IMG/VR virus record: IMGVR_UViG_3300017713_000042
Location: 1-31,501 of that record
Strand: one strand, 5' to 3'
DNA length: 31,501 bases
From: a virus
Taxonomy: Duplodnaviria > Caudoviricetes
The notes below the pieces were generated by a model, which saw only the letters and a list, made by a program, of their open reading frames with translations, was not told where the DNA came from and made no database searches. The first letter of the stretch is position 1. Every line of letters begins with the position of its first letter. Shown in pieces: positions 10,198 to 31,341 of the stretch. Position numbers and translations under genes: made by a program.

Positions 10198-10532
10198 GCA
10201 AGAAGGTTCACAAGGTCAGCTTCCTATCCAACAAGCAGAATACTCGCCTTGGTGGACTCATTGCCGTTTTAGGCGACAGGGAGCCGTATGACTGGATTTT
10301 AGGTGGGTTGGTACAAGAAGGGTTCGTAGAGCGTGTAGAGGGGGCTTTGAGGCTCACTGAGAGGGGTGTTAAGGAGAAGGATAGGCTGGCAACCCTAGCT
10401 GGCCTGATGGTGGAGAAAGATAGGGCCGCACCTCTGCCCCCCAAATCAACGGAACGGCTCACCCGCAATCCAACAGACCAGCGACCACCTAACACCCTTA
10501 GTGACAGGCAGGACTCTGTGGGAGAGGTATGA
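10194..10532 (+). CDS. Hypothetical protein with winged-helix-like segment
   Basis: ATGA-coupled; LVQEGFVER....LRLTERG; the 3' end overlaps the convergent oxygenase gene. Confidence 0.5.
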   Translation: MSKKVHKVSFLSNKQNTRLGGLIAVLGDREPYDWILGGLVQEGFVERVEGALRLTERGVKEKDRLATLAGLMVEKDRAAPLPPKSTERLTRNPTDQRPPNTLSDRQDSVGEV

Positions 10533-11021
10533 GGGGAAGGCTATAGCGGTTCCTAAATCTGGCTTTATGTCAGTCTCTCCATCTGTAAAAAAAGCCAACT
10601 CACCGCCCTCATAATCATCATTTAGCAGTATGGATACGCTTATCTTGCGTGTAGAGGCATCGCCCATCCCTATATCTAGATGCCAATCATATCCTTTTGA
10701 TGGTGCGGAATACTTCAATAGCTGTGGACGCTCCAACAATCCTGTGATGTTGAAGTCAAACTGGTCATTGGCGAGTTTGGCGCAATTAATAATAAGCTCA
10801 TCAACCCAACTGTGAAATTCATGGATTATGTAAACATCTGTTTGCCTTACACCTACGTTCACAACATTTGAATTATCTTTTTGTATTCTACCCTGCACAG
10901 ACAGGTTTCGTGAATCCTTGTGAAGTTCTATGATGGATGCACAAGATGAAAGGCTGATTTGATCAGCGGCCATCACACCCACTTCTTTGTCTCGTAATTT
11001 AGGCGGTATCGCATAAGCCAT
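10446..11021 (-). CDS. 2OG-Fe(II) oxygenase (PKHD/prolyl-hydroxylase-like)
   Basis: HxD (WHLD), RKIS...LN.DYEGGEL, FPS...HRV.PVTKG.RWSLV.W..G. Confidence 0.92.
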   Translation of the reverse strand: MAYAIPPKLRDKEVGVMAADQISLSSCASIIELHKDSRNLSVQGRIQKDNSNVVNVGVRQTDVYIIHEFHSWVDELIINCAKLANDQFDFNITGLLERPQLLKYSAPSKGYDWHLDIGMGDASTRKISVSILLNDDYEGGELAFFTDGETDIKPDLGTAIAFPSYLSHRVLPVTKGVRWSLVCWIAGEPFR

Positions 11022-22528: not shown

Positions 22529-24280
22529 ATGCAAGAACTGATAGACCAAGGAATACGGTTACGCTCTTACGCAGAGGGTGATCACAAGACATTATGCCCA
22601 CAATGCTCACCAAATCGTCGCAACAAAAGCGATCCATGCTTGTCTGTTACAGTAAAGCCTGATGGTGGGGCCGTGTGGAAGTGCCATCACTGTGAGTGGG
22701 TTGGTGGGGCTGGTGGGCATTCAAGGCCCGTATATGCGGCTCCTAGAGCGTTTAAAAGGCCAAAGAAGCCAGAGGGGCAGCACACGACAGTTGCTATGCA
22801 GGATTGGTTTACTAAGAGGGGCATTAACTCAGAGACTGTGGCTCACTTTGGCATACACAGATCAGATCAATATTTTGGCAATGGCGGCACAGAAGGGTGT
22901 ATTTCGTTTCCTTATTATAAGGATGGCGAACTGGTGAACATTAAGCACCGCACTAAGGATAAGAGGTTTAAGCAGGAAAAGGATGCGGAGCGTACCCTAT
23001 ACAATATTGATGCAGTAAAAACCCATTGGGATAAGGGTGGCATTAAGGAAGTGATTTTTGTTGAGGGTGAGATGGATGTGCTTTCATTACACGAGGCAGG
23101 GTATTCATACGCCATTAGCTTGCCAGATGGCGCACCCAAGGAAGCTAAGTTTGATCCCGCAGACAAAAGATTTGCCGCGCTGGCCAATTGCGAATGGTTG
23201 AATGAAGCTGACAAGGTGATTGTTGCCGTTGATGGTGATGAAGCTGGGCAAGCGTTGCAGCTAGAGTTGATACACCGCTTTGGCAAGGACCGTTGCTGGA
23301 CTGTTGAATGGCCTAGCTTGCATGACATAGTTATTAAGGATGCTAACGAATGTTTGGTTGAGCATGGCAAGGAGGTGTTGGGTGAGGTAATAGCCAATGC
23401 CACGCCGCACCCGATTGATGGCATTTACACGGTGAGAGATTACCAGCGAGAGGTGCAGGACATATACCGTGGCAATGTGCAGAAGCCACTAAGCACAGGA
23501 TTTGCAAACCTTGATGAGATATACAAGGTTATGCCGTCAACGTTCTGTTTGGTCACTGGGGTTCCCAACCACGGCAAGTCAAACTTCCTTGACCAGCTTA
23601 CAGTGAATTTGGCCCGCAATGAGGGATGGCGGTTTGCGGTGTTTAGCCCTGAACACTCTACAGCTAACCATATACGGCGTTTGTCAGAGAAGGTTGTGGG
23701 CAAGCCATTTGATGATGGGCCAAGCCAGAGGATGACCACCCAAGAACTCGGCGATGCCATGATGTTTCTTGATGACAATTTTTACTTCATTGAGAGCCGT
23801 GATAAAATTCCAAGTATTGATTGGCTGTTAAGCAAGGCCAAGGCCGCTTGCTTGCGGCATGGCGTTAGGGGGATTGTTATTGATCCTTACAACGAGATTG
23901 ATGCAAGCCGTGAGGGAAATAAGAGAGAAGATGAGCATATCCGCGATTTGATTTCTGCCTGTAAGCAGTTCTGCCGCACTCACAATATTTGCATTTGGAT
24001 GGTGGCGCACCCTGCCAAGATGCAGAGGAACCAAGAGGGGATAATACCAGCCCCAAGTTTGTATGACGTGAGCGGCTCAGCGCATTGGAATAATATGACT
24101 GATGTGGGGCTTGTAGTGCATAGAGACTTTGAGACCAATCAAACTAAGGTAATAACTAGGAAGGTTAGGGAACAAGGCTTGTATGGCTCTATAGGTGAGG
24201 CTTACTTTACCTATGATCTAACACAGCACGTTTATAAGCCAGTTATTGATATGCCCGTGATTAACCACTGGACAGACTAG
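22529..24280 (+). CDS. DNA primase-helicase (T7 gp4/Twinkle-like)
   Basis: CPQC...CHHC zinc finger; TOPRIM VEGEMD and DGDEAG, KDANE; Walker A GVPNHGKS; VIDPYN; VAHPAK. Confidence 0.93.
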   Translation: MQELIDQGIRLRSYAEGDHKTLCPQCSPNRRNKSDPCLSVTVKPDGGAVWKCHHCEWVGGAGGHSRPVYAAPRAFKRPKKPEGQHTTVAMQDWFTKRGINSETVAHFGIHRSDQYFGNGGTEGCISFPYYKDGELVNIKHRTKDKRFKQEKDAERTLYNIDAVKTHWDKGGIKEVIFVEGEMDVLSLHEAGYSYAISLPDGAPKEAKFDPADKRFAALANCEWLNEADKVIVAVDGDEAGQALQLELIHRFGKDRCWTVEWPSLHDIVIKDANECLVEHGKEVLGEVIANATPHPIDGIYTVRDYQREVQDIYRGNVQKPLSTGFANLDEIYKVMPSTFCLVTGVPNHGKSNFLDQLTVNLARNEGWRFAVFSPEHSTANHIRRLSEKVVGKPFDDGPSQRMTTQELGDAMMFLDDNFYFIESRDKIPSIDWLLSKAKAACLRHGVRGIVIDPYNEIDASREGNKREDEHIRDLISACKQFCRTHNICIWMVAHPAKMQRNQEGIIPAPSLYDVSGSAHWNNMTDVGLVVHRDFETNQTKVITRKVREQGLYGSIGEAYFTYDLTQHVYKPVIDMPVINHWTD

Positions 24281-24342
24281 CATCAGATGATATGATGTGC
24301 AGGATTCCAGTAGCACTCCATGTTATTTGGTATTCGTGGTTT

Positions 24343-24383
24343 GAAAGGGAGGTTTGGTCGCCTCCCTTTCTTCTTTTTTTCTT
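24343..24383 (+). terminator. Intrinsic terminator after the replication operon
   Basis: 10-bp stem GAAAGGGAGG/CCTCCCTTTC (24343-24352, 24361-24370) followed by a T-rich tract. Confidence 0.85.
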
Positions 24384-24434
24384 GATGCAATCAAAATCAT
24401 TTTGGTGTAGCCTGTCCCAAAATGGGGATGATTT

Positions 24435-25043
24435 ATGGAAATCAAGCAAGTACCAATTACAGATGTAAAACCCTATACCGCCAACCCACGCATCATTTCT
24501 GAGTCAGCGGTTGCGTCTGTTGCCAGCAGCATTTCCAGCTTTGGATGGCAGCAGCCAATTGTAGTTGATGGCAATAACATAATCATAGCGGGTCATACTA
24601 GGTTTTTAGCAGCCAAAAGGCTTTCCTTAGATACTGTTCCAATAAAGATTTCAGCCAATCTCACAGAAGATCAAATAAAAGCGTTCCGCATTTTAGATAA
24701 CAAGCTAAATGAGCTTACGACTTGGGATGATGGCCTTCTTGAGGCTGAAATGGCATCTATTGATAGCGGCGAGTTAGAGGCGTTTAGACATTTATGGGCC
24801 AGCATTGATACTGATTTGCAAAACAGTGATATTGAGTTTCTCAATGACATGATTTCAGAAAAGGAATCAAATGTGCAGGATTCAGATGTTGTTGGTTCAG
24901 TAGGCGATTATGTGACAATGAGCTTTGTAATGTCACCAATAGATCGGGACATGGTTTTATCTGCACTTCGATCTATCCAAAACCAAGAAGGTTTGGAAAA
25001 CACCACTCAAGCATTGTTGAAAATAACGAAAGAGTTAGTCTAA
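24435..25043 (+). CDS. ParB/Srx-domain protein (no methyltransferase domain attached)
   Basis: KPY..NPR.....V..VA.SI..FGWQQPIVVD....IIAGHTR..AA..L....VP...RILDNK..E...WD. Confidence 0.9.
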   Translation: MEIKQVPITDVKPYTANPRIISESAVASVASSISSFGWQQPIVVDGNNIIIAGHTRFLAAKRLSLDTVPIKISANLTEDQIKAFRILDNKLNELTTWDDGLLEAEMASIDSGELEAFRHLWASIDTDLQNSDIEFLNDMISEKESNVQDSDVVGSVGDYVTMSFVMSPIDRDMVLSALRSIQNQEGLENTTQALLKITKELV

Positions 25044-25726
25044 TGGAAATCAATTATGACCCGAAACACAGTGATGGAATCCGAGCTTTGGATACCATGT
25101 ATCCGACCTACGCTATGTTTTTCACAAATAATGCGGACGATCTCGGTTTGCCTCACGCTTCAACATACGGATATGTTTTAGAAGGCGGCTGCACCATTAG
25201 AGCCAACAAACAGGAATGGCAATTACAGGAAGGCAACTATTTCGCATTTTCTGGATCATTCAACATTATGAAATCTGATGGGCTGAAGCTGTGGACAGTG
25301 ACCAAGTTGGGCTACAGGGTTATGCCTGTGATGGGTCAAATTGAAGATAACGGACGGCTTTCGTACATTGATGGCTGTTCAGATAGTGTTTTGGTATCAA
25401 TGGCCAGAATGGGTGATCCAGTTCTAAATTATTTGCATTTTCCTACTGGTATCTATCAAACACAGCATACGCACCCGTCAATCCGTATGGGCTGCGTCAT
25501 AAAAGGTGAGGGCGAAGCTTTCCAAGAAAAAAGCAACCACAGTGATGGTTGGGTCAAGCCCTTGAAAAAAGGCTGCATCTTTATGCTAACAGAACAAGAG
25601 CTTCACTCTTTCAGAACAACAGATAGCGGCATGGATATTGTGGCCTTTCATCCAGATAGTGATACAGGGCCAACCGATGAAAATCATTCAATGATTAACA
25701 GAACGTACATTGATCACGGGAAGTAG
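25043..25726 (+). CDS. Cupin-fold protein (degenerate N-cupin plus metal-binding C-cupin)
   Basis: YVLEG....L.EG.YF; then QTQHTHPS.R.G.V..G.G ... L..G.....E.E.HSF. Confidence 0.7.
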   Translation: MEINYDPKHSDGIRALDTMYPTYAMFFTNNADDLGLPHASTYGYVLEGGCTIRANKQEWQLQEGNYFAFSGSFNIMKSDGLKLWTVTKLGYRVMPVMGQIEDNGRLSYIDGCSDSVLVSMARMGDPVLNYLHFPTGIYQTQHTHPSIRMGCVIKGEGEAFQEKSNHSDGWVKPLKKGCIFMLTEQELHSFRTTDSGMDIVAFHPDSDTGPTDENHSMINRTYIDHGK

Positions 25727-25728
25727 GC

Positions 25729-26937
25729 ATGGGCCGTCTCGGTAAGAAAAAAATCATAGATAAAAACGTCTATGAGTTGGCTATTGAGCGTATTCACAGA
25801 GCGTATGATCGCTTTGATACCGTTGCTGTTATGTTTAGCGGCGGCAAGGATTCAACGGCGTGTCTGATGTTGACTTTAGGGGTGGCGCAGGAGCGAGGAA
25901 TCAAAAAAGTTCCTGTTCATCACTTTGATGAAGAAGCCATCCCATATGATACAGAAGAATATGTCAGGCGCGTTTCTCAAATGCCGATGGTTGATATGTA
26001 TTGGTGGTGTTTGCCTGTCAGACATAGAAATGCTTGCTCAGTAAAAGAGCCTTGGTGGTTTCCTTGGGGGCCAGAAGATGAGCATAAGTGGGTCAGGCCG
26101 ATGCCGTCAGAGGGATTAAGCCATATAGATGGCTTGCCAACTGATCCTGATAAACGCCTAACTATACCAGAAATCAATGGATACATATTCTCTCCAGAGA
26201 AGCACGGAAACGTAGGCATAATCATGGGTATAAGAGCCGATGAGAGCCTTACTAGAACCAGAGCTATCCTGAACAGCAAAAAACGTGAAGATAAGCACAT
26301 CATCAAATATGATGAGGGATCATCACAGGGAAATATCTACAAGGTCTATCCAGTTTATGATTGGAACACCAAAGATATATGGACTGCACCGCGAAAGTTT
26401 GGTTGGGACTATAATCACGCTTATGATCGTATGGATAAGGGCGGTATAAGCCCTAATGCTCAGCGTTGTGCGCCTCCGTATGGTGAGGAGCCTATGCGTG
26501 GCTTGCATCAGTTCAGGGAGCTTTGGCCGGATATATGGGATAAAATGCAGACCAGAGTAGCGGGTGCTGCAACAGCCGCCAGATACTCTACTACAGTTCT
26601 TTATTCTTATGGCAAGACCCCTGCCAAGCCAGAAAATATGTCGTGGCATGATTTTATAAAGTTTTGGGTTGATAAGCATCCAGAGCCATACAAGACCCAA
26701 GTAGCTGAGAGAATACGGGGGTTCATACAGAATCACTACGGCAAGACTAATGAGCCATTGATGGATAAAATTGCTCACCCACGCACAGGCGTATCATGGG
26801 ATTTTCTTTTAAAGATAGCTGTGAGGGGTGATTTCAAAGGCAGGAAACAGCCAACCATACAAGGCGGTACTGAGGAAGCCCTCAAGCAAAAAAGGAAATA
26901 TGATGAAGCAAGGTTCAGAAGCCCAACCCATAAATAG
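25729..26937 (+). CDS. PAPS-reductase-family PP-loop protein (IbrA/YbdN-like; DndC/SspD superfamily)
   Basis: FSGGKDS PP-loop; DEEA; GIRADES..R; YPVYDW...DIW; YN..YD.M...G.....QR...PYG. Confidence 0.88.
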   Translation: MGRLGKKKIIDKNVYELAIERIHRAYDRFDTVAVMFSGGKDSTACLMLTLGVAQERGIKKVPVHHFDEEAIPYDTEEYVRRVSQMPMVDMYWWCLPVRHRNACSVKEPWWFPWGPEDEHKWVRPMPSEGLSHIDGLPTDPDKRLTIPEINGYIFSPEKHGNVGIIMGIRADESLTRTRAILNSKKREDKHIIKYDEGSSQGNIYKVYPVYDWNTKDIWTAPRKFGWDYNHAYDRMDKGGISPNAQRCAPPYGEEPMRGLHQFRELWPDIWDKMQTRVAGAATAARYSTTVLYSYGKTPAKPENMSWHDFIKFWVDKHPEPYKTQVAERIRGFIQNHYGKTNEPLMDKIAHPRTGVSWDFLLKIAVRGDFKGRKQPTIQGGTEEALKQKRKYDEARFRSPTHK

Positions 26938-27442
26938 TGTTCAATGGGTCAATAGAGATACCCTTCACGCCAACTCATACAATCCTAACAAGGTTGCTCC
27001 TGTTGAGCTTGAATTACTGGTACAGTCAATCCTGACTTGCGGGTGGACTCAGCCTGTGGTTATCAGATCAAACAATGAAATCGTAGATGGGTTTCATAGG
27101 TGGTTGGTTTCTGGTGATGATCGGGTAGCTGAATATACAGGTGGCATGGTTCCTGTTGTGATGTTGCCTGATGATATGGGTATGGCTGAACAGGTTTCAG
27201 CAACTATTACCCATAACAGGGCCAGAGGTAGCCATTTTGTTATGAGCATGGCTGATATTGTTAGAAGCCTGAAGGATGAGCAGGGCGTTGATGATAAATG
27301 GATTCAACAGCATCTAGGCATGGAGCCGGATGAAATAGAGCGTCTTTATGACAATGCAGGATCGCCTGATACGAAAGGCGACCCTGATGATGAGTTTGAA
27401 GATGGATGGGTTCCTGACTTTAGCAGAATGGAGGGCGGTTAA
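26903..27442 (+). CDS. ParB-like protein (IbrB/YbdM-like)
   Basis: V.WV....L.AN.YNPN.VAP.E..LL..SI...GWTQP.V...IVDGFHRW...ATI.HNRARG.H; AAGGA SD before ATG 26900/26903. Confidence 0.88.
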   Translation: MKQGSEAQPINSVQWVNRDTLHANSYNPNKVAPVELELLVQSILTCGWTQPVVIRSNNEIVDGFHRWLVSGDDRVAEYTGGMVPVVMLPDDMGMAEQVSATITHNRARGSHFVMSMADIVRSLKDEQGVDDKWIQQHLGMEPDEIERLYDNAGSPDTKGDPDDEFEDGWVPDFSRMEGG

Positions 27443-27888
27443 GCCCTATACCTTTTGGGTATGTGTCCATCATTACTGTCGTATTCATTAGTAAATTCCA
27501 AGGCTTGTTGTAGATACTTTAAATCCACACCAAAATCCTCATACCCACGAGCAATACCATCTAGGTACATCTTTGGCGGCATAGCCAACCCATCACGGTT
27601 CATGGTGTAGGCCATATAGACAATACCATCGCCGCCTTGCCAGTATTGCTTGCCATAAAGACTAGGGAAGCCTTCATATATATCAAGGCTGTCCTCACAA
27701 GCCTTTGTAATCTTCCACATTGCCACGGGGCATAGGAAGCCCGTTGCGGGTATAATGTCAGCAACGCCGCGAAACACCAGCCGCCATTCAGGCAAAAGCA
27801 TCGCTCCTAAAGGTTTTGCGTCAGGGCATCTTTGAGCCATCTGACCTTTGTCCATGTTTGATCCATATGCCATGTAAATGATATCCAT
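27439..27888 (-). CDS. Gamma-glutamylcyclotransferase (GGCT/AIG2-like)
   Basis: Y.AYGSNM...QM..RCP.A...L.FRGVADI...W.I....E..LD.YEG.P..Y. Confidence 0.9.
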   Translation of the reverse strand: MDIIYMAYGSNMDKGQMAQRCPDAKPLGAMLLPEWRLVFRGVADIIPATGFLCPVAMWKITKACEDSLDIYEGFPSLYGKQYWQGGDGIVYMAYTMNRDGLAMPPKMYLDGIARGYEDFGVDLKYLQQALEFTNEYDSNDGHIPKRYRA

Positions 27889-28124
27889 TAGTTCATCTCC
27901 CATTTGGTGAGCAGTTTGTTGTCCAACAGTGACTGCACAAAAGTATCTGGTGTCGTGGGGTCAAGTTGTGCATCGCAATATAATCTGGTCCAAACGCACA
28001 TCTGTTTCATAAAGTCGTTAGCATCCTTAGTTTCAATTATGGTGTCGTTCCTATAACGCTCAACTAAGGTGGCCGCATCTGATGCTACAAATGAACGGCC
28101 ATCATAAGTTATCCAATAGTTCAT
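27888..28124 (-). CDS. Small hypothetical protein in the amidoligase operon
   Basis: TAATG-coupled on both sides. Confidence 0.75.
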   Translation of the reverse strand: MNYWITYDGRSFVASDAATLVERYRNDTIIETKDANDFMKQMCVWTRLYCDAQLDPTTPDTFVQSLLDNKLLTKWEMN

Positions 28125-28978
28125 TATGAATTCCTATCAGCGAGTTCCTTTGCCCGCTTTTTGAAAAAGATACGGGTGGAGGCACTAATGCCCCCAACCC
28201 GCACAAGTCCTCCAAGAAGGGTGTCGAGTACCTTGCTTGGAGACGGAGAAACTGAGAAGTTTTTGACAGCCTTGCCGTTATCTGCATCAGCAATCATTGC
28301 GCCAGTGAGTGCAATCCAATTCAAAACCTTGGCTTCATCAAATGTACCGGAGTGCTGGCGGATCTCTAATGTGCCAGTGCGGTGAAACTTGGCAAGGTTC
28401 AGCTTGCAATATCTGCTGTGGCTACCCTGTATCATTTCACGCAACTGACCGACTGAGCGACAGCGATCAATGCGATCAAACATATGGGCGACCAAGACCT
28501 CTGTTTCGGCTGTGTTGTCTGTGTATGTTGGCAAGGCATAAACAGACTTACAGTAATAAGCATTATCTGCGCGGCGTGACTTTGGCTGAGTGATATCAAT
28601 ACCACGCTCAAACTTTGACCAACGCTTATAAAAATTACGGAAGTGCTTAATACGCCAATCAGATACACCCCAATGAATGTGAAAGCCACAAGACTTGTTG
28701 GCATCACCACCGTTTGCGCGAACAATCTGAAGTACCTTTTTTACTTCTAAGATGCCGGTTATGCCAGACAGTACAGGGGATACAACTTCAAAGCCGTGAC
28801 TACCGCTGATTGATCCATCTGGCTTTACTTGCCACACGCGATAATTGGAGCCAGAGTAAGTGGATGACTGAGCGTTGATGCCAGCGGCCCGCAAGCGATC
28901 CACAAGGGTGTGTATTGGAATACCGAATCCCTCAAACTCAACACCGAATGTGCGTGATGTGGTGGGTGTAATGGTCAT
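28124..28978 (-). CDS. Putative amidoligase (COOH-NH2 ligase, glutamine-synthetase-like fold)
   Basis: TFGVEFE; W.VKPDGSI...FEVVSPVL; NKSCGFHIH; RY.KLNL....R.GTLEIRQH.GT. Confidence 0.9.
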   Translation of the reverse strand: MTITPTTSRTFGVEFEGFGIPIHTLVDRLRAAGINAQSSTYSGSNYRVWQVKPDGSISGSHGFEVVSPVLSGITGILEVKKVLQIVRANGGDANKSCGFHIHWGVSDWRIKHFRNFYKRWSKFERGIDITQPKSRRADNAYYCKSVYALPTYTDNTAETEVLVAHMFDRIDRCRSVGQLREMIQGSHSRYCKLNLAKFHRTGTLEIRQHSGTFDEAKVLNWIALTGAMIADADNGKAVKNFSVSPSPSKVLDTLLGGLVRVGGISASTRIFFKKRAKELADRNS

Positions 28979-28984
28979 TTTGAT

Positions 28985-29054
28985 CTCCGTGGTTATTAGG
29001 GGCTGCCCCCTCTCGACATGATTACAATCCCATATCTGTTTACTACTGTCAACA
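28985..29054 (-). promoter_or_regulatory. Early promoter/operator copy 4 plus leader with G/C hairpin
   Basis: TTGACA (29052-29047); palindrome at 29037-29054; AGGGG/CCCCT hairpin at about 28998-29011; AACCACGGAG at 28994-28985; -10 is degenerate. Confidence 0.75.
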
Positions 29055-29087
29055 CATTATCTGTCATTAATAATCAAAACATCATTT

Positions 29088-29465
29088 TTATTTAATTCTC
29101 ATGCAGTGATAGTTGTTTGTGTTCGTTATTCTTCTGGTTCTATGGCATCCAGTGCCATAAATTTTATTCATTGTTTGTGTAAATGCTTTCCTGCCTCTGT
29201 CATTTGGTAAGATCATATAGTCACCTACTTCCATTTGCCTAAGTGTTTTAGACATATTCATCTCATTAGAAAATTTGTATTGCCTCTTCTGAGAAGGCAG
29301 ATGGTCTTTAACAATCTTGCCGCAGGACTCAATCGTTTCAAAAACGCATTTGCAATCAAAGCAAAATTTTAATCTTGATATTTGTGGGCTGGGCCAGAGC
29401 GTAACTGCTTTATTATTGGTTCGCGTGTTGCGACCTCTACAATTTGGGCATGGTATCATGTTCAT
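29088..29465 (-). CDS. Zinc-ribbon protein (NrdR N-terminal/Ogr-like) with basic C-domain
   Basis: CPNC....T...R.K.C.DC...F.T.E. Confidence 0.65.
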   Translation of the reverse strand: MNMIPCPNCRGRNTRTNNKAVTLWPSPQISRLKFCFDCKCVFETIESCGKIVKDHLPSQKRQYKFSNEMNMSKTLRQMEVGDYMILPNDRGRKAFTQTMNKIYGTGCHRTRRITNTNNYHCMRIK

Positions 29466-29570: not shown

Positions 29571-30137
29571 ATGGCTACCAAGTTTACAGAAGCCCTGAAA
29601 AAGAAAATCAAAGCAGAATTTATTGAGGGCTATATAGATGATGATGGCGTAAGAAATTACCCATCTATTGAAGCATTAGCTAAACGCCACGACGTAAGCA
29701 GGGCCACAATATATAGACACTCAAACCCTAATAAAGAGGATTGGCAGAAAGCCAAGAATCAATACCAATCCAAAATGAGCAAAGAAGTAGAGGAAACTCG
29801 TTTGCGAGATTTGGTAGCGGAAAGCCAAGCCCTAGATAAAAACAGTCTGCAAATTGCACAGGCGTTACTTTCACGGGTTGGTCGTAAGCTGGCTAGGTCA
29901 ATGGAAGATGAAAGAAACAATCCAGAATCCCAAGGACTAAGCCCAGCAGAATTGAGAGAATTATCTCACGTTACAGCTAATGCTCAAAAGATTGGTAAAT
30001 TAGCTTTGGGTGAGGCACAGGAGATTTCAAAGGTATCAGCGGATGTTAGCGCACCAGAATCATACAACAATCTCATCAGACACTTGGAAGGACTTGCCAA
30101 CCAAAAAGCAGCACTTGGCAAGCACACTATTCAGTGA
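29571..30137 (+). CDS. terS: Terminase small subunit
   Basis: N-terminal HTH (SIEALAKRHDVSRATIYR..W); helical; directly upstream of terL. Confidence 0.75.
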   Translation: MATKFTEALKKKIKAEFIEGYIDDDGVRNYPSIEALAKRHDVSRATIYRHSNPNKEDWQKAKNQYQSKMSKEVEETRLRDLVAESQALDKNSLQIAQALLSRVGRKLARSMEDERNNPESQGLSPAELRELSHVTANAQKIGKLALGEAQEISKVSADVSAPESYNNLIRHLEGLANQKAALGKHTIQ

Positions 30138-31341
30138 TTGGGCTGATGTAGCAAGGTATGAGCAGCTACCCTTAGCGGGTGATTGGAATATATGGCTGAT
30201 TCTCGCTGGTCGCGGTTGGGGCAAGACCCGCACGGGTGCAATGGATGTTATTACATACGCCTTACACAACCCAGAGGTTCAGGTGGCAGTTGTTGTGCCT
30301 ACCTTCGGAGACTTGCGGCGAGTGGCCTTCGGAGGGGTATCAGGAATACTTCAAAACATACCAAAGGAACTTTTGTTAGAAGGCAGGGGGCAGGGGTACA
30401 ATGCTGCCAATCAAGAAATAAGATTGTACAACGGCTCTAAGATAATGGGCTTTTCTGCAACCGAACCAGACCGTTTGAGAGGGCCACAATTCCATAGGGC
30501 TTGGTGCGATGAGCTGGCGGCTTGGTTTTACCCAGAAACATTTGACCAGCTAATGTTTGGCTTGCGTCTAGGTCAAAACCCCAGATGCGTGATAACAACA
30601 ACGCCAAAGCCTACGCCGCTGATAAAGAGTTTGCTAAAGCGCAAAAATGTTCTTGTTACAAGAGGTAGCACATTTGAGAACGCAGCCAATCTTGCGCCAG
30701 CAGCGTTGGAGCAGCTTAAAGAAAAGTACGGTGACACCAGATTAGGTAGGCAGGAGCTTTACGCTGAGGTTCTTGATGATACAGAAGGTGCGCTTTGGAG
30801 CTACTCAATGATTGATGAGGCTAGGGTACAGCCTCAAGATGTGCCGTATTTTGAGCGTGTCATTGTAGCAATTGATCCGGCGGTAACTAGCGGTCAGAAC
30901 TCAGATGAGACTGGAATTGTGGTGTGCGGCAGGGCGTCAAATGGAAGATACTATGTCATTGCTGATGAATCTGGTAGGATGACACCAGATGGTTGGGGCC
31001 GCATGGCTGTTGACTGTTACTATAGGCACAATGCTGATAGAATAGTAGCGGAGACCAACAATGGTGGTGATTTAGTTGAAAGATTGATAAGAAATATTGA
31101 TTCAGAAGTCCCTTATACTTCCGTTCACGCAGCGCGGGGTAAGTTAATAAGGGCAGAGCCGATAGCGGCCTTATATGAACAAAAAAAGGTTTCTCATGCA
31201 GGGGTCTTTTCTGAGCTTGAGGAACAGATGTGTTCATATTCCGTTGGGAGTAGGCAGTCGCCAGATAGACTTGATGCCTTAGTCTGGGCATTAACAGAAC
31301 TAAGCCAGTCCAGTGGGAAGGCGTATTGGAGAATCAGTTAA
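30094..31341 (+). CDS. terL: Terminase large subunit (start uncertain: GTG 30010, TTG 30094 or TTG 30115)
   Basis: Walker A AGRGWGKT; RLRGPQF; Walker B AWCDE; TTTPK; nuclease VAIDPAV...DETGI...SPDRLDALVW. Confidence 0.95.
   Translation: MPTKKQHLASTLFSDWADVARYEQLPLAGDWNIWLILAGRGWGKTRTGAMDVITYALHNPEVQVAVVVPTFGDLRRVAFGGVSGILQNIPKELLLEGRGQGYNAANQEIRLYNGSKIMGFSATEPDRLRGPQFHRAWCDELAAWFYPETFDQLMFGLRLGQNPRCVITTTPKPTPLIKSLLKRKNVLVTRGSTFENAANLAPAALEQLKEKYGDTRLGRQELYAEVLDDTEGALWSYSMIDEARVQPQDVPYFERVIVAIDPAVTSGQNSDETGIVVCGRASNGRYYVIADESGRMTPDGWGRMAVDCYYRHNADRIVAETNNGGDLVERLIRNIDSEVPYTSVHAARGKLIRAEPIAALYEQKKVSHAGVFSELEEQMCSYSVGSRQSPDRLDALVWALTELSQSSGKAYWRIS

Follow-up and report, generated by a model that had tools for sequence, protein, structure and literature searches.

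A ParB-bicupin-IbrA-IbrB gene cassette of a tailed phage that most likely works like a phage DNA-modification cassette

What does a viral gene with the 3'-phosphoadenosine 5'-phosphosulfate (PAPS) reductase fold do when its partners are two ParB-like proteins and a cupin? The question is raised by IMG/VR record IMGVR_UViG_3300017713_000042, a tailed-phage record (Duplodnaviria; Caudoviricetes) with an estimated completeness of 67%, of which the whole 31,501-nucleotide stretch analysed is here called the window. It carries a cassette of four intact open reading frames (ORFs), all on the plus strand (24435-27442), which encode in order a ParB/Srx protein (ParB1), a bicupin, a PP-loop enzyme of the IbrA/YbdN family, and a second ParB/Srx protein, of the IbrB/YbdM family (Table 1). 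A first-pass annotation, made from the letters of the sequence, had proposed a phage DNA-modification system by analogy with DNA phosphorothioation. The analysis presented here indicates that the cassette is a member of the IbrA/IbrB family, is neither CysH nor DndC by the tests run, and most likely works like a phage DNA-modification cassette.

All four genes are genuine and intact, and they evolve under purifying selection, with dN/dS values, relative to a 98-99% relative (L020), of 0.12 for ParB1, 0.04 for the cupin, 0.02 for IbrA, and 0.03 for IbrB. They are also tightly coupled, as the annotation had described: a TAATG overlap (25041-25045) joins ParB1 and the cupin, a gap of 2 bp separates the cupin from IbrA, and IbrA overlaps IbrB by 38 bp from the first possible start codon or by 35 bp from the next. 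Pfam and PHROG matches confirm the gene identities given there (ParB/Srx, cupin, PP-loop protein with an intact SGGKDS motif, second ParB), and the placement between the replication and packaging modules also holds, with a primase-helicase gene on one side and terS/terL on the other. Genes for a gamma-glutamyl cyclotransferase (GGCT) and an amidoligase, convergent on the minus strand, stand between the cassette and terS/terL and had gone unmentioned.

The role of the cassette is suggested first by what takes its place in related genomes. So that the choice would not depend on the cassette itself, sister phages were gathered through two other genes, primase-helicase (best 80 of 518) and terminase (best 80 of at least 555); since the alignments used as queries derived from phages with the cupin cassette, IbrA is probably over-represented. 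Among these 160 loci, 85 span the whole stretch from the replication genes to terS, hereafter the slot, and 75 were dropped as cut short or unanchored. With contents named from cluster representatives via Pfam and PHROGs, and with the methyltransferase-like partners s12, s18, and s23 inside IbrA cassettes not counted as recognised DNA modification, the slot holds IbrA in 39 loci, recognised DNA modification in 33, and neither in 13, which are empty; in no locus does it hold both. Grouping at 98% terS identity yields 54 groups (21 with IbrA, 23 with recognised DNA modification, 10 empty, none mixed), and grouping at 90% yields 47 (19, 18, and 10, respectively). The recognised contents comprise TET/JBP (below cut-off, E 4e-23), TAGT, ADDT, P-loop kinase, Mom, N6/N4 and C5 methyltransferases, and ParB-methyltransferase fusions. 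The IbrA label switches six times on a quickly built terL tree of 45 rows, with at least four of the switches forced by well-supported branches.

The lead gene is shared across these contents. ParB1 (PF02195, ParB_N, E 9e-10; phrog_620, E 5e-43) also matches the N-termini of the phrog_498 methyltransferase (E 1e-35) and of PADLOC MTase_II (E 1e-19). Its homologues are the lead genes of TET, TAGT, Mom, and C5-methyltransferase cassettes and occur fused to N6/N4 methyltransferases; the window protein is 31-54% identical to the ParBs of those cassettes and fusions, several of which are nearer to it than the ParB1s of other IbrA cassettes. Judged by sequence, ParB1 is thus a generic lead gene of DNA-modification cassettes in the slot. 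Scores against the chromosome-partition ParB model TIGR00180 (36.9 and 20.8 bits) lie under its cut-off of 58.45, ParA and parS not being part of the search. ParB and terminase genes have been described beside phage TET clusters, and ParBs have been proposed to direct modification enzymes during packaging (PMC8256090). Because the IbrA cassette exchanges with known cassettes and has its ParB1 in common with TET, TAGT, Mom, and methyltransferase cassettes, the DNA-modification role proposed in the annotation is supported; its analogy with backbone phosphorothioation is weak, for reasons given below. The IbrA cassette resembles phage TET/JBP-TAGT/ADDT, Mom, and ParB-methyltransferase cassettes in its slot, its ParB1 lead family, and its modular tailoring enzymes, and differs from them in having a PP-loop adenylyltransferase-like core without TET, TAGT, ADDT, or Mom. 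Some sister phages (L311, L356, L377, L392, L399) carry varied TET/kinase/ADDT/TAGT cassettes, some of them with TAGT but no TET and some with an FkbM methyltransferase or a GATase, and these are candidates for new base chemistries.

IbrA matches PF01507 (39 bits, cut-off 22.5), PF11922 (46.9 bits, cut-off 25), and phrog_2302 (E 9e-87), and among 149 distinct full-length homologues GxRxxES is present in all and SGGKDS in 139. Its model (predicted local distance difference test, pLDDT, 88.4) is nearest to FAD synthase (Z 16.8, root-mean-square deviation (rmsd) 2.5, 168 aligned), followed by CysD (Z 14.9) and APS reductase (Z 14.0), and Foldseek agrees; the comparison covers residues ~10-260, with the C-terminal 140 residues barely sampled, and identity to FAD synthase and CysD is about 20%. 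DndC, SspD, and TdpC are absent from the structure-search listings, which is no evidence of differing folds. Against the sequences of solved structures, the single sequence gives no match under E 0.4 and a profile gives a best E of 1e-3. Going by the model, IbrA is predicted to be an ATP-dependent adenylyltransferase and the catalytic core of the cassette.

IbrB (phrog_2159, E 2.5e-59; DG-HR and NRA-G-H invariant in the alignment) has homologues in the slot that accompany IbrA only; it is the dedicated partner of IbrA, and the two form the core of the cassette. The resemblance of the last two genes to IbrA/IbrB, already remarked in the annotation, is borne out by the PAPS_reduct and DUF3440 domains and the phrog_2159 partner. 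The annotation had suggested co-folding all four proteins; co-folding covered IbrA with IbrB only and gave a score of 0.39 against 0.00 for the best control, with contacts agreeing in at least 48% between runs and a partner pLDDT of at least 63. Of 157 solved pairs, 116 attain this mark, as do 2 of 215 mismatches, but those at or below 0.60 comprise just 18 of the solved pairs and both mismatches, so that the modelled contact has weak support. A PAPS_reduct and DUF3440 gene followed by an overlapping ParB/Srx gene is likewise the arrangement of IbrA/IbrB on an Escherichia coli island and of YbdN/YbdM in K-12 (PHROGs 2302 and 2159), from which the window cassette differs in belonging to a separate subfamily and in adding a second ParB and a bicupin or its substitute. 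The description of IbrA/IbrB as a co-activator of prophage gene expression was found as annotation (GenBank) or second-hand remark only (PMC4490671, PMC8813620, PMC4541368). Within the parts of the literature covered, including PMC12839542, PMC5874904, and 10.1101/2023.12.21.572611, no biochemical function is given for IbrA/IbrB of either subfamily or for the bicupin; DUF3440 is named in four papers.

The family is widespread. Pattern matching gives an estimate of ~5,700 stored viral stretches with IbrA/IbrB relatives, about half of the scanned matches being confirmed, and 223 cultured-phage records hold an IbrA/IbrB relative (best 60 at 28-35% identity). Arthrobacter phage Wheelbite carries a ParB-PAPS-ParB-methyltransferase series followed by terminase, Microbacterium phage Hendrix has glycosyltransferase, methyltransferase, acetyltransferase, and IbrA in a row, and protein P0171 is an N6/N4 methyltransferase-IbrA fusion. 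Mycobacterium smegmatis phage Gaia and E. coli K-12 phage PhiR5_2 also belong to the cultured IbrA phages. Some cassettes contain a second, short SGGKDS protein of the PAPS-reductase fold (L017:5523-6251, L052, L058, L060, L063, L066, L070, L091, L094, L177, L197, L200); a tandem IbrA pair occurs in L052 and L094, and P0154 is an IbrA with a ~240-residue insert that is intein-like by eye and has no Pfam call.

Neighbourhoods of IbrA were compared in 79 viral loci (the best 80 of at least 324 confirmed ones, less one that was excluded), which split into two subfamilies: that of the window, with 32 loci, profile scores of at least 350, and an RNxC motif, and another, with 47 loci, scores of about 220-280, and often an SNF2 or GNAT neighbour. 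The bicupin occurs in 21 of the 32 and in 0 of the 47. In the remaining 11 loci of the window's subfamily, its place is accounted for by an SSF symporter (2), a TctC-type binding protein (3), another cupin (4), a cupin-like protein (1), or the contig end (1). IbrA with IbrB is the core, and among these loci the cupin linkage is limited to one subfamily; with a generic ParB1 and a cupin that is swapped for a transporter, a binding protein, or another cupin across loci, the idea of a fixed four-protein machine was rejected. A DUR3-like solute symporter or a TctC-type binding protein lies between ParB1 and IbrA at L173:6599-8035, L174:919-2343, L181:2756-3598, and L184:7160-8017; the best solved relative of the phage symporter is DUR3 (E 5e-15). 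An aldehyde dehydrogenase neighbour has aminobutyraldehyde dehydrogenase as its best match, under that model's cut-off. The partners of IbrA in the slot are also diverse: among 21 groups, phrog_854 glucosyltransferases accompany it in 11, an unnamed ~95-residue domain in 12, and the bicupin in 3, with methyltransferases and GNATs besides. The ~95-residue domain (examples at L283:12144-12788, L379:4932-5642, and L365:4200-4496), single or fused to S-adenosylmethionine (SAM) decarboxylase or SET, is found in addition in three loci of other phages. As to methyltransferases, the annotation saw none for DNA in the window, and five bicupin-cassette relatives that are 93-100% complete likewise have neither the N6/N4 (0/5) nor the C5 (0/5) type.

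The bicupin is modelled with high confidence (pLDDT 94.9), and its alignment shows invariant YIDGC-D, H142, H144, R148, and H188, with Cys112 in 63/63. Its nearest folds are DR1152, YlbA, and ureidoglycine aminohydrolase (Z 19-20, rmsd 2.9, 195-201 aligned, 11-14% identity), and those of BacB and KduI score within 1-2 Z of the top; with several enzymes so close, the modelled fold names no reaction. The usual cupin metal motif includes a Glu ligand. Although the window protein has the bicupin fold in common with ureidoglycine aminohydrolase/YlbA (Z 19.5, 195 aligned), it carries His-x-His-x3-Arg in the position of that ligand. It has no match in PHROGs, NCBIfam (E 0.01), or PADLOC, and none among 50,697 cultured-phage records; in the ESM Atlas it falls with unnamed, mostly viral clusters, a ureidoglycine aminohydrolase cluster at 0.88 being a lead only.

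Relatives of the bicupin number 429 in viruses and 394 in cells, of which the best 80 of each were kept, duplicates not being merged. Within 5 kb of the viral ones lie IbrA (54), an SGGIDS PP-loop protein (15), another PP-loop protein (1), or none (10, of which 6 are cut short); the cellular loci have an AsnB-type amidotransferase (32), an SGGIDS protein (5), IbrA (1), a doubtful motif (1), or none (41). For the cellular loci this amounts to 44 matches in 715 kb near the bicupin and 2 in 344 kb farther away, on profiles built from the same neighbours. Of 34 long proteins containing the bicupin, 19 have an SGGIDS domain, most of these with a SAM methyltransferase and some from diatoms (fusions P0253, P0269, P0241, and others), and four are fused to nonribosomal peptide synthetase (NRPS) condensation and carrier domains (P0245, P0251, P0252, P0264). 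The bicupin is therefore a swappable accessory and a recurrent partner of PP-loop enzymes across kingdoms, and is most simply taken as a small-molecule enzyme paired with adenylating enzymes, not as a DNA-binding part. Two arrangements deserve mention in their own right. In 32/80 cellular loci (L095-L114, L135-L172; myxobacteria, Verrucomicrobia, Acidobacteria, and others), the bicupin adjoins the AsnB-type glutamine amidotransferase and an unnamed protein with N-terminal CxxC pairs, a candidate undescribed pathway. In large phages and Bacteroidota (L074:6892-12425, L076, L068, L078, L117), it adjoins an unnamed ~360-residue SGGIDS PP-loop protein without Pfam or PHROG match, followed in L074 and L076 by deformylase, radical SAM, QueD-like, FolE, and QueC-like genes.

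How might such a cassette work? On balance, we lean towards the reading that it modifies the phage's own DNA after replication, in an ATP-driven reaction and probably with a group other than sulfur; DNA as the target, by this route or by the sulfur-dependent one weighed below, can be named with rather more confidence. ParB1 would load the enzymes onto freshly synthesised DNA near packaging, or target them to it, as has been suggested for TET-linked ParBs. IbrA with IbrB would adenylate an oxyanion, most likely a DNA phosphate, and a small nucleophile would displace AMP and remain on the DNA. The variable gene would supply or tailor that small molecule, through the metal-binding bicupin in the window and, in relatives, through another cupin, a solute transporter or binding protein, SAM decarboxylase, aldehyde dehydrogenase, or glycosyl-, acetyl-, or methyltransferases. 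FAD synthase adenylates FMN phosphate and CysD adenylates sulfate, both established oxyanion chemistry, and because these are the nearest solved relatives of IbrA, DNA phosphate is put forward as the substrate; the adenylation step also draws on the title of the Tdp paper cited in PMC12914056. The attached group is at best guessed, on weak support, to be an amine, because of the SAM decarboxylase domains, the DUR3-like symporter, and the aminobutyraldehyde-dehydrogenase-like neighbour, each in few loci. A fuller proposal sees in IbrA/IbrB a widespread, modular means by which phages adenylate the backbone of DNA and attach to it a group other than sulfur (an amine or another metabolite, cupin-made or transporter-imported); it is tentative and rather doubtful.

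Several observations weigh against modification of DNA by a non-sulfur route. The functional evidence is all by association. The accessory genes span several kinds of chemistry (sugars, acetyl, methyl, TctC-type binding protein), and hence an amine cannot fit all of them. The slot also houses genes without a known DNA role (amidoligase, GGCT, transporters), and it is empty in 10 of the 54 groups. The partner s18, present in 5 of the 21 IbrA groups with an N6_N4 match below cut-off, may be a DNA amino-methyltransferase, and strict exclusivity of the slot ends if such methyltransferase-like partners are counted as recognised DNA methyltransferases. In E. coli K-12, ybdNM is described as a regulated chromosomal operon tied to growth on citrate (PMC9068703), a setting that does not point to DNA marking. 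Blanket protection from restriction is not evident either: palindromes are depleted across the window (observed/expected 0.71 for 4-mers and 0.48 for 6-mers), which suggests continuing host-restriction pressure, and avoidance is alike among phages with IbrA, hypermodification, methyltransferase/Mom, and empty slots (p 0.46-1.0; n 21, 11, 5, 3), a comparison in which recognised hypermodifiers are not separated from empty slots. The anti-restriction role suggested in the annotation is accordingly not shown. The palindromic 4-mers most depleted window-wide are GCGC, ACGT, CATG, CCGG, and GATC (z -6 to -8).

Among other explanations, the one that survives best is that virion proteins or another non-DNA macromolecule are modified, with IbrA activating the group and with amidoligase, GGCT, and glycosyl-, acetyl-, and methyltransferases decorating capsid or tail; we consider it unlikely. 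It draws on the position of the slot at the head of the late genes, on the phrog_854 glucosyltransferases that partner IbrA, on reports that phage glycosyltransferases glycosylate capsid and tail tube proteins (PMC12363180), and on the GGCT and amidoligase genes, which travel together and, in more than one order, occupy the slot of 16 of the 21 IbrA groups as against 0 of the 33 others. Against this, only 4 of the 79 IbrA loci from other phages have the amidoligase nearby, and its association and that of GGCT with IbrA may reflect shared ancestry and linkage within one lineage; DNA is indicated instead by the two ParBs and by the way the cassette alternates with TET, TAGT, Mom, and DNA methyltransferases.

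Less likely still is a minimal phosphorothioate-like route, in which IbrA would adenylate the backbone and sulfur would come on Cys103/Cys94 from a host desulfurase or via Cys112 of the cupin. DndC, SspD, BrxP, and TdpC do combine, as the IbrA cassette does, a PP-loop enzyme of the PAPS-reductase fold with a ParB-family neighbour (DndB; PMC10853773), and IbrA has weak matches to DndC/SspD (E 1e-6 to 4e-9, residues 143-219). The invariance of Cys112 among the bicupins, and the retention of Cys103 in 74 of 77 members of the window's IbrA subfamily, would suit such a route; tdpC alone is reported to suffice for phosphorothioation, and host IscS to replace DndA (PMC12914056). Yet the hallmarks of DndC/SspD are a cysteine dyad and Fe-S ligands (PMC10853773), with a neighbouring DndD/SspC ATPase in Dnd/Ssp systems (PMC12914056), and the phage-encoded IbrA cassette, with its DUF3440, has no Fe-S cysteine motifs, no such ATPase, and no desulfurase. 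CxxC is found in 0 of 149 homologues; a CC pair is absent from the window IbrA and occurs anywhere, position unchecked, in 25 of the 149. Only Cys94 and Cys103 are conserved, the latter in just 1 of 72 members of the other subfamily. The DndC model TIGR03183 scores 27.8 bits against a cut-off of 290, and membership of DndC/SspD was rejected. DndD/SspC has no match for the four proteins (PADLOC) or the 37 window proteins (Pfam), although Tdp reportedly needs none (PMC12914056), and cysteine desulfurase (PF00266) is found in 0 of 5 near-complete relatives, for which a host enzyme could substitute. The analogy with Dnd/Ssp made in the first-pass annotation is thus weak.

To much the same degree, if not slightly more so, it is improbable that the cassette acts by producing or breaking down some diffusible nucleotide or metabolite, in counter-defence or gene regulation, with no covalent change to DNA. 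The nearest solved relatives of IbrA act on small molecules, bacterial members of the cupin family have AsnB-type amidotransferases as neighbours, fusions of the family to NRPS domains occur, transporters take the place of the cupin, and GenBank carries the co-activator label. That label is, however, annotation or second-hand remark, and a diffusible product leaves unexplained both the exclusivity of the slot with DNA-modification cassettes and the common ParB1.

The signature of CysH is a redox cysteine in a C-terminal ECG(L/I)H motif. That IbrA is a genuine CysH, carried as an auxiliary metabolic gene to assimilate sulfate, as its PF01507 match, its PHROG category ("auxiliary metabolic gene"), and the reading of viral cysH in ecology papers (PMC9301287) would have it, can be set aside as very improbable, in agreement with the annotation, given ECGxH in 0 of 149 homologues, scores far under the NCBIfam CysH cut-offs (TIGR02057 21.4 against 254; TIGR00434 20.6 against 165), a DUF3440 extension, a dedicated ParB partner, and, as had also been noted, the lack of any further cys gene, here in a Pfam scan of 37 window proteins.

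Table 1. Coordinates of the cassette genes and of other features in the window
Feature	Position	Strand	Details
2OG-Fe(II) oxygenase	10446-11021	-	PF13640, PKHD/YbiX-like; by Pfam not TET-like
Primase-helicase	22529-24280		Flank of cassette
Sigma70-like promoter match	24269..24296	+	10/12 positions, extended -10; weak
Intrinsic-terminator-like hairpin and U-tract	24343..24370	+	-19.1 kcal/mol, z -3.7, 0/200 shuffles
ParB1 (ParB/Srx N-terminal domain, acidic linker, short conserved C-terminal element)	24435..25043	+	202 aa
Bicupin	25043..25726	+	227 aa; Cupin_2 (Pfam)
IbrA/YbdN-family PP-loop enzyme, PAPS-reductase fold and DUF3440	25729..26937	+	402 aa; SGGKDS at residues 37-42
IbrB/YbdM-family ParB/Srx protein	26900..27442	+	180 aa from ATG 26900 (alternative ATG 26903)
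GGCT (AIG2-like), possible associated gene	27439..27903	-	phrog_2520, E 9e-25
Amidoligase_2, possible associated gene	28124..28978	-	PF12224, E 5e-31
terS/terL	29571-31341		Flank of cassette

Upstream of the cassette, the annotation had placed a terminator that insulates the operon from the primase-helicase gene. The hairpin and its U-tract are real, and insulation as a conserved feature was rejected, since only 4 of the 29 distinct regions between primase and ParB1, all from close kin, contain a hairpin of -10 or better, and the remaining 25 are gaps of 17-102 bp without a strong hairpin. Promoter-like matches stand at chance level (17 found, 17.3 expected); sites resembling the one listed occur in L003, L012, and L022, with the -35 hexamer inside the last primase codons. 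As the hairpin lies downstream of this site, it could act as a leader instead of an insulator in this lineage. Its loop is conserved in L003, L004, and L064 while the stems change, which might indicate a short leader RNA.

Elsewhere in the window, tail tube, tape measure, primase-helicase, and terminase genes are recognised by Pfam and PHROGs, and the 2OG-Fe(II) oxygenase lies distant from the cassette. A 78-residue ORF accompanies the GGCT and amidoligase genes in the minus-strand set (27439-28978) that converges on the cassette. The stretch is held by runs labelled as viral, riverine, and seawater metagenomes, with no RNA run among the listed holders and with one small-share run spanning only ~220 bases. 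Positions 24200-29100 were recovered in contigs of three other DNA runs (30/30, 30/30, and 27/30 bins) and, in a fourth, small run, in 2/30 bins.

Viral PAPS-reductase genes have been counted as core genes of sulfur metabolism (PMC9301287), a reading that, for IbrA-type genes, fails the motif test. If the fuller proposal of a non-sulfur group on the backbone is true, phosphorothioate would be joined by another natural modification of the DNA backbone, one made diverse by exchangeable supply genes, and many viral genes labelled cysH would then encode DNA-modifying enzymes. A further outcome is a bicupin family linked to PP-loop enzymes in sources as far apart as phages and diatoms, and IbrA/IbrB relatives are present in E. 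coli K-12 as well as in the cultured phages. Where there was only a vague label, the slot comparison offers a definite prediction that cultured phages on laboratory hosts allow to be checked: their virion DNA should contain a modified nucleotide.

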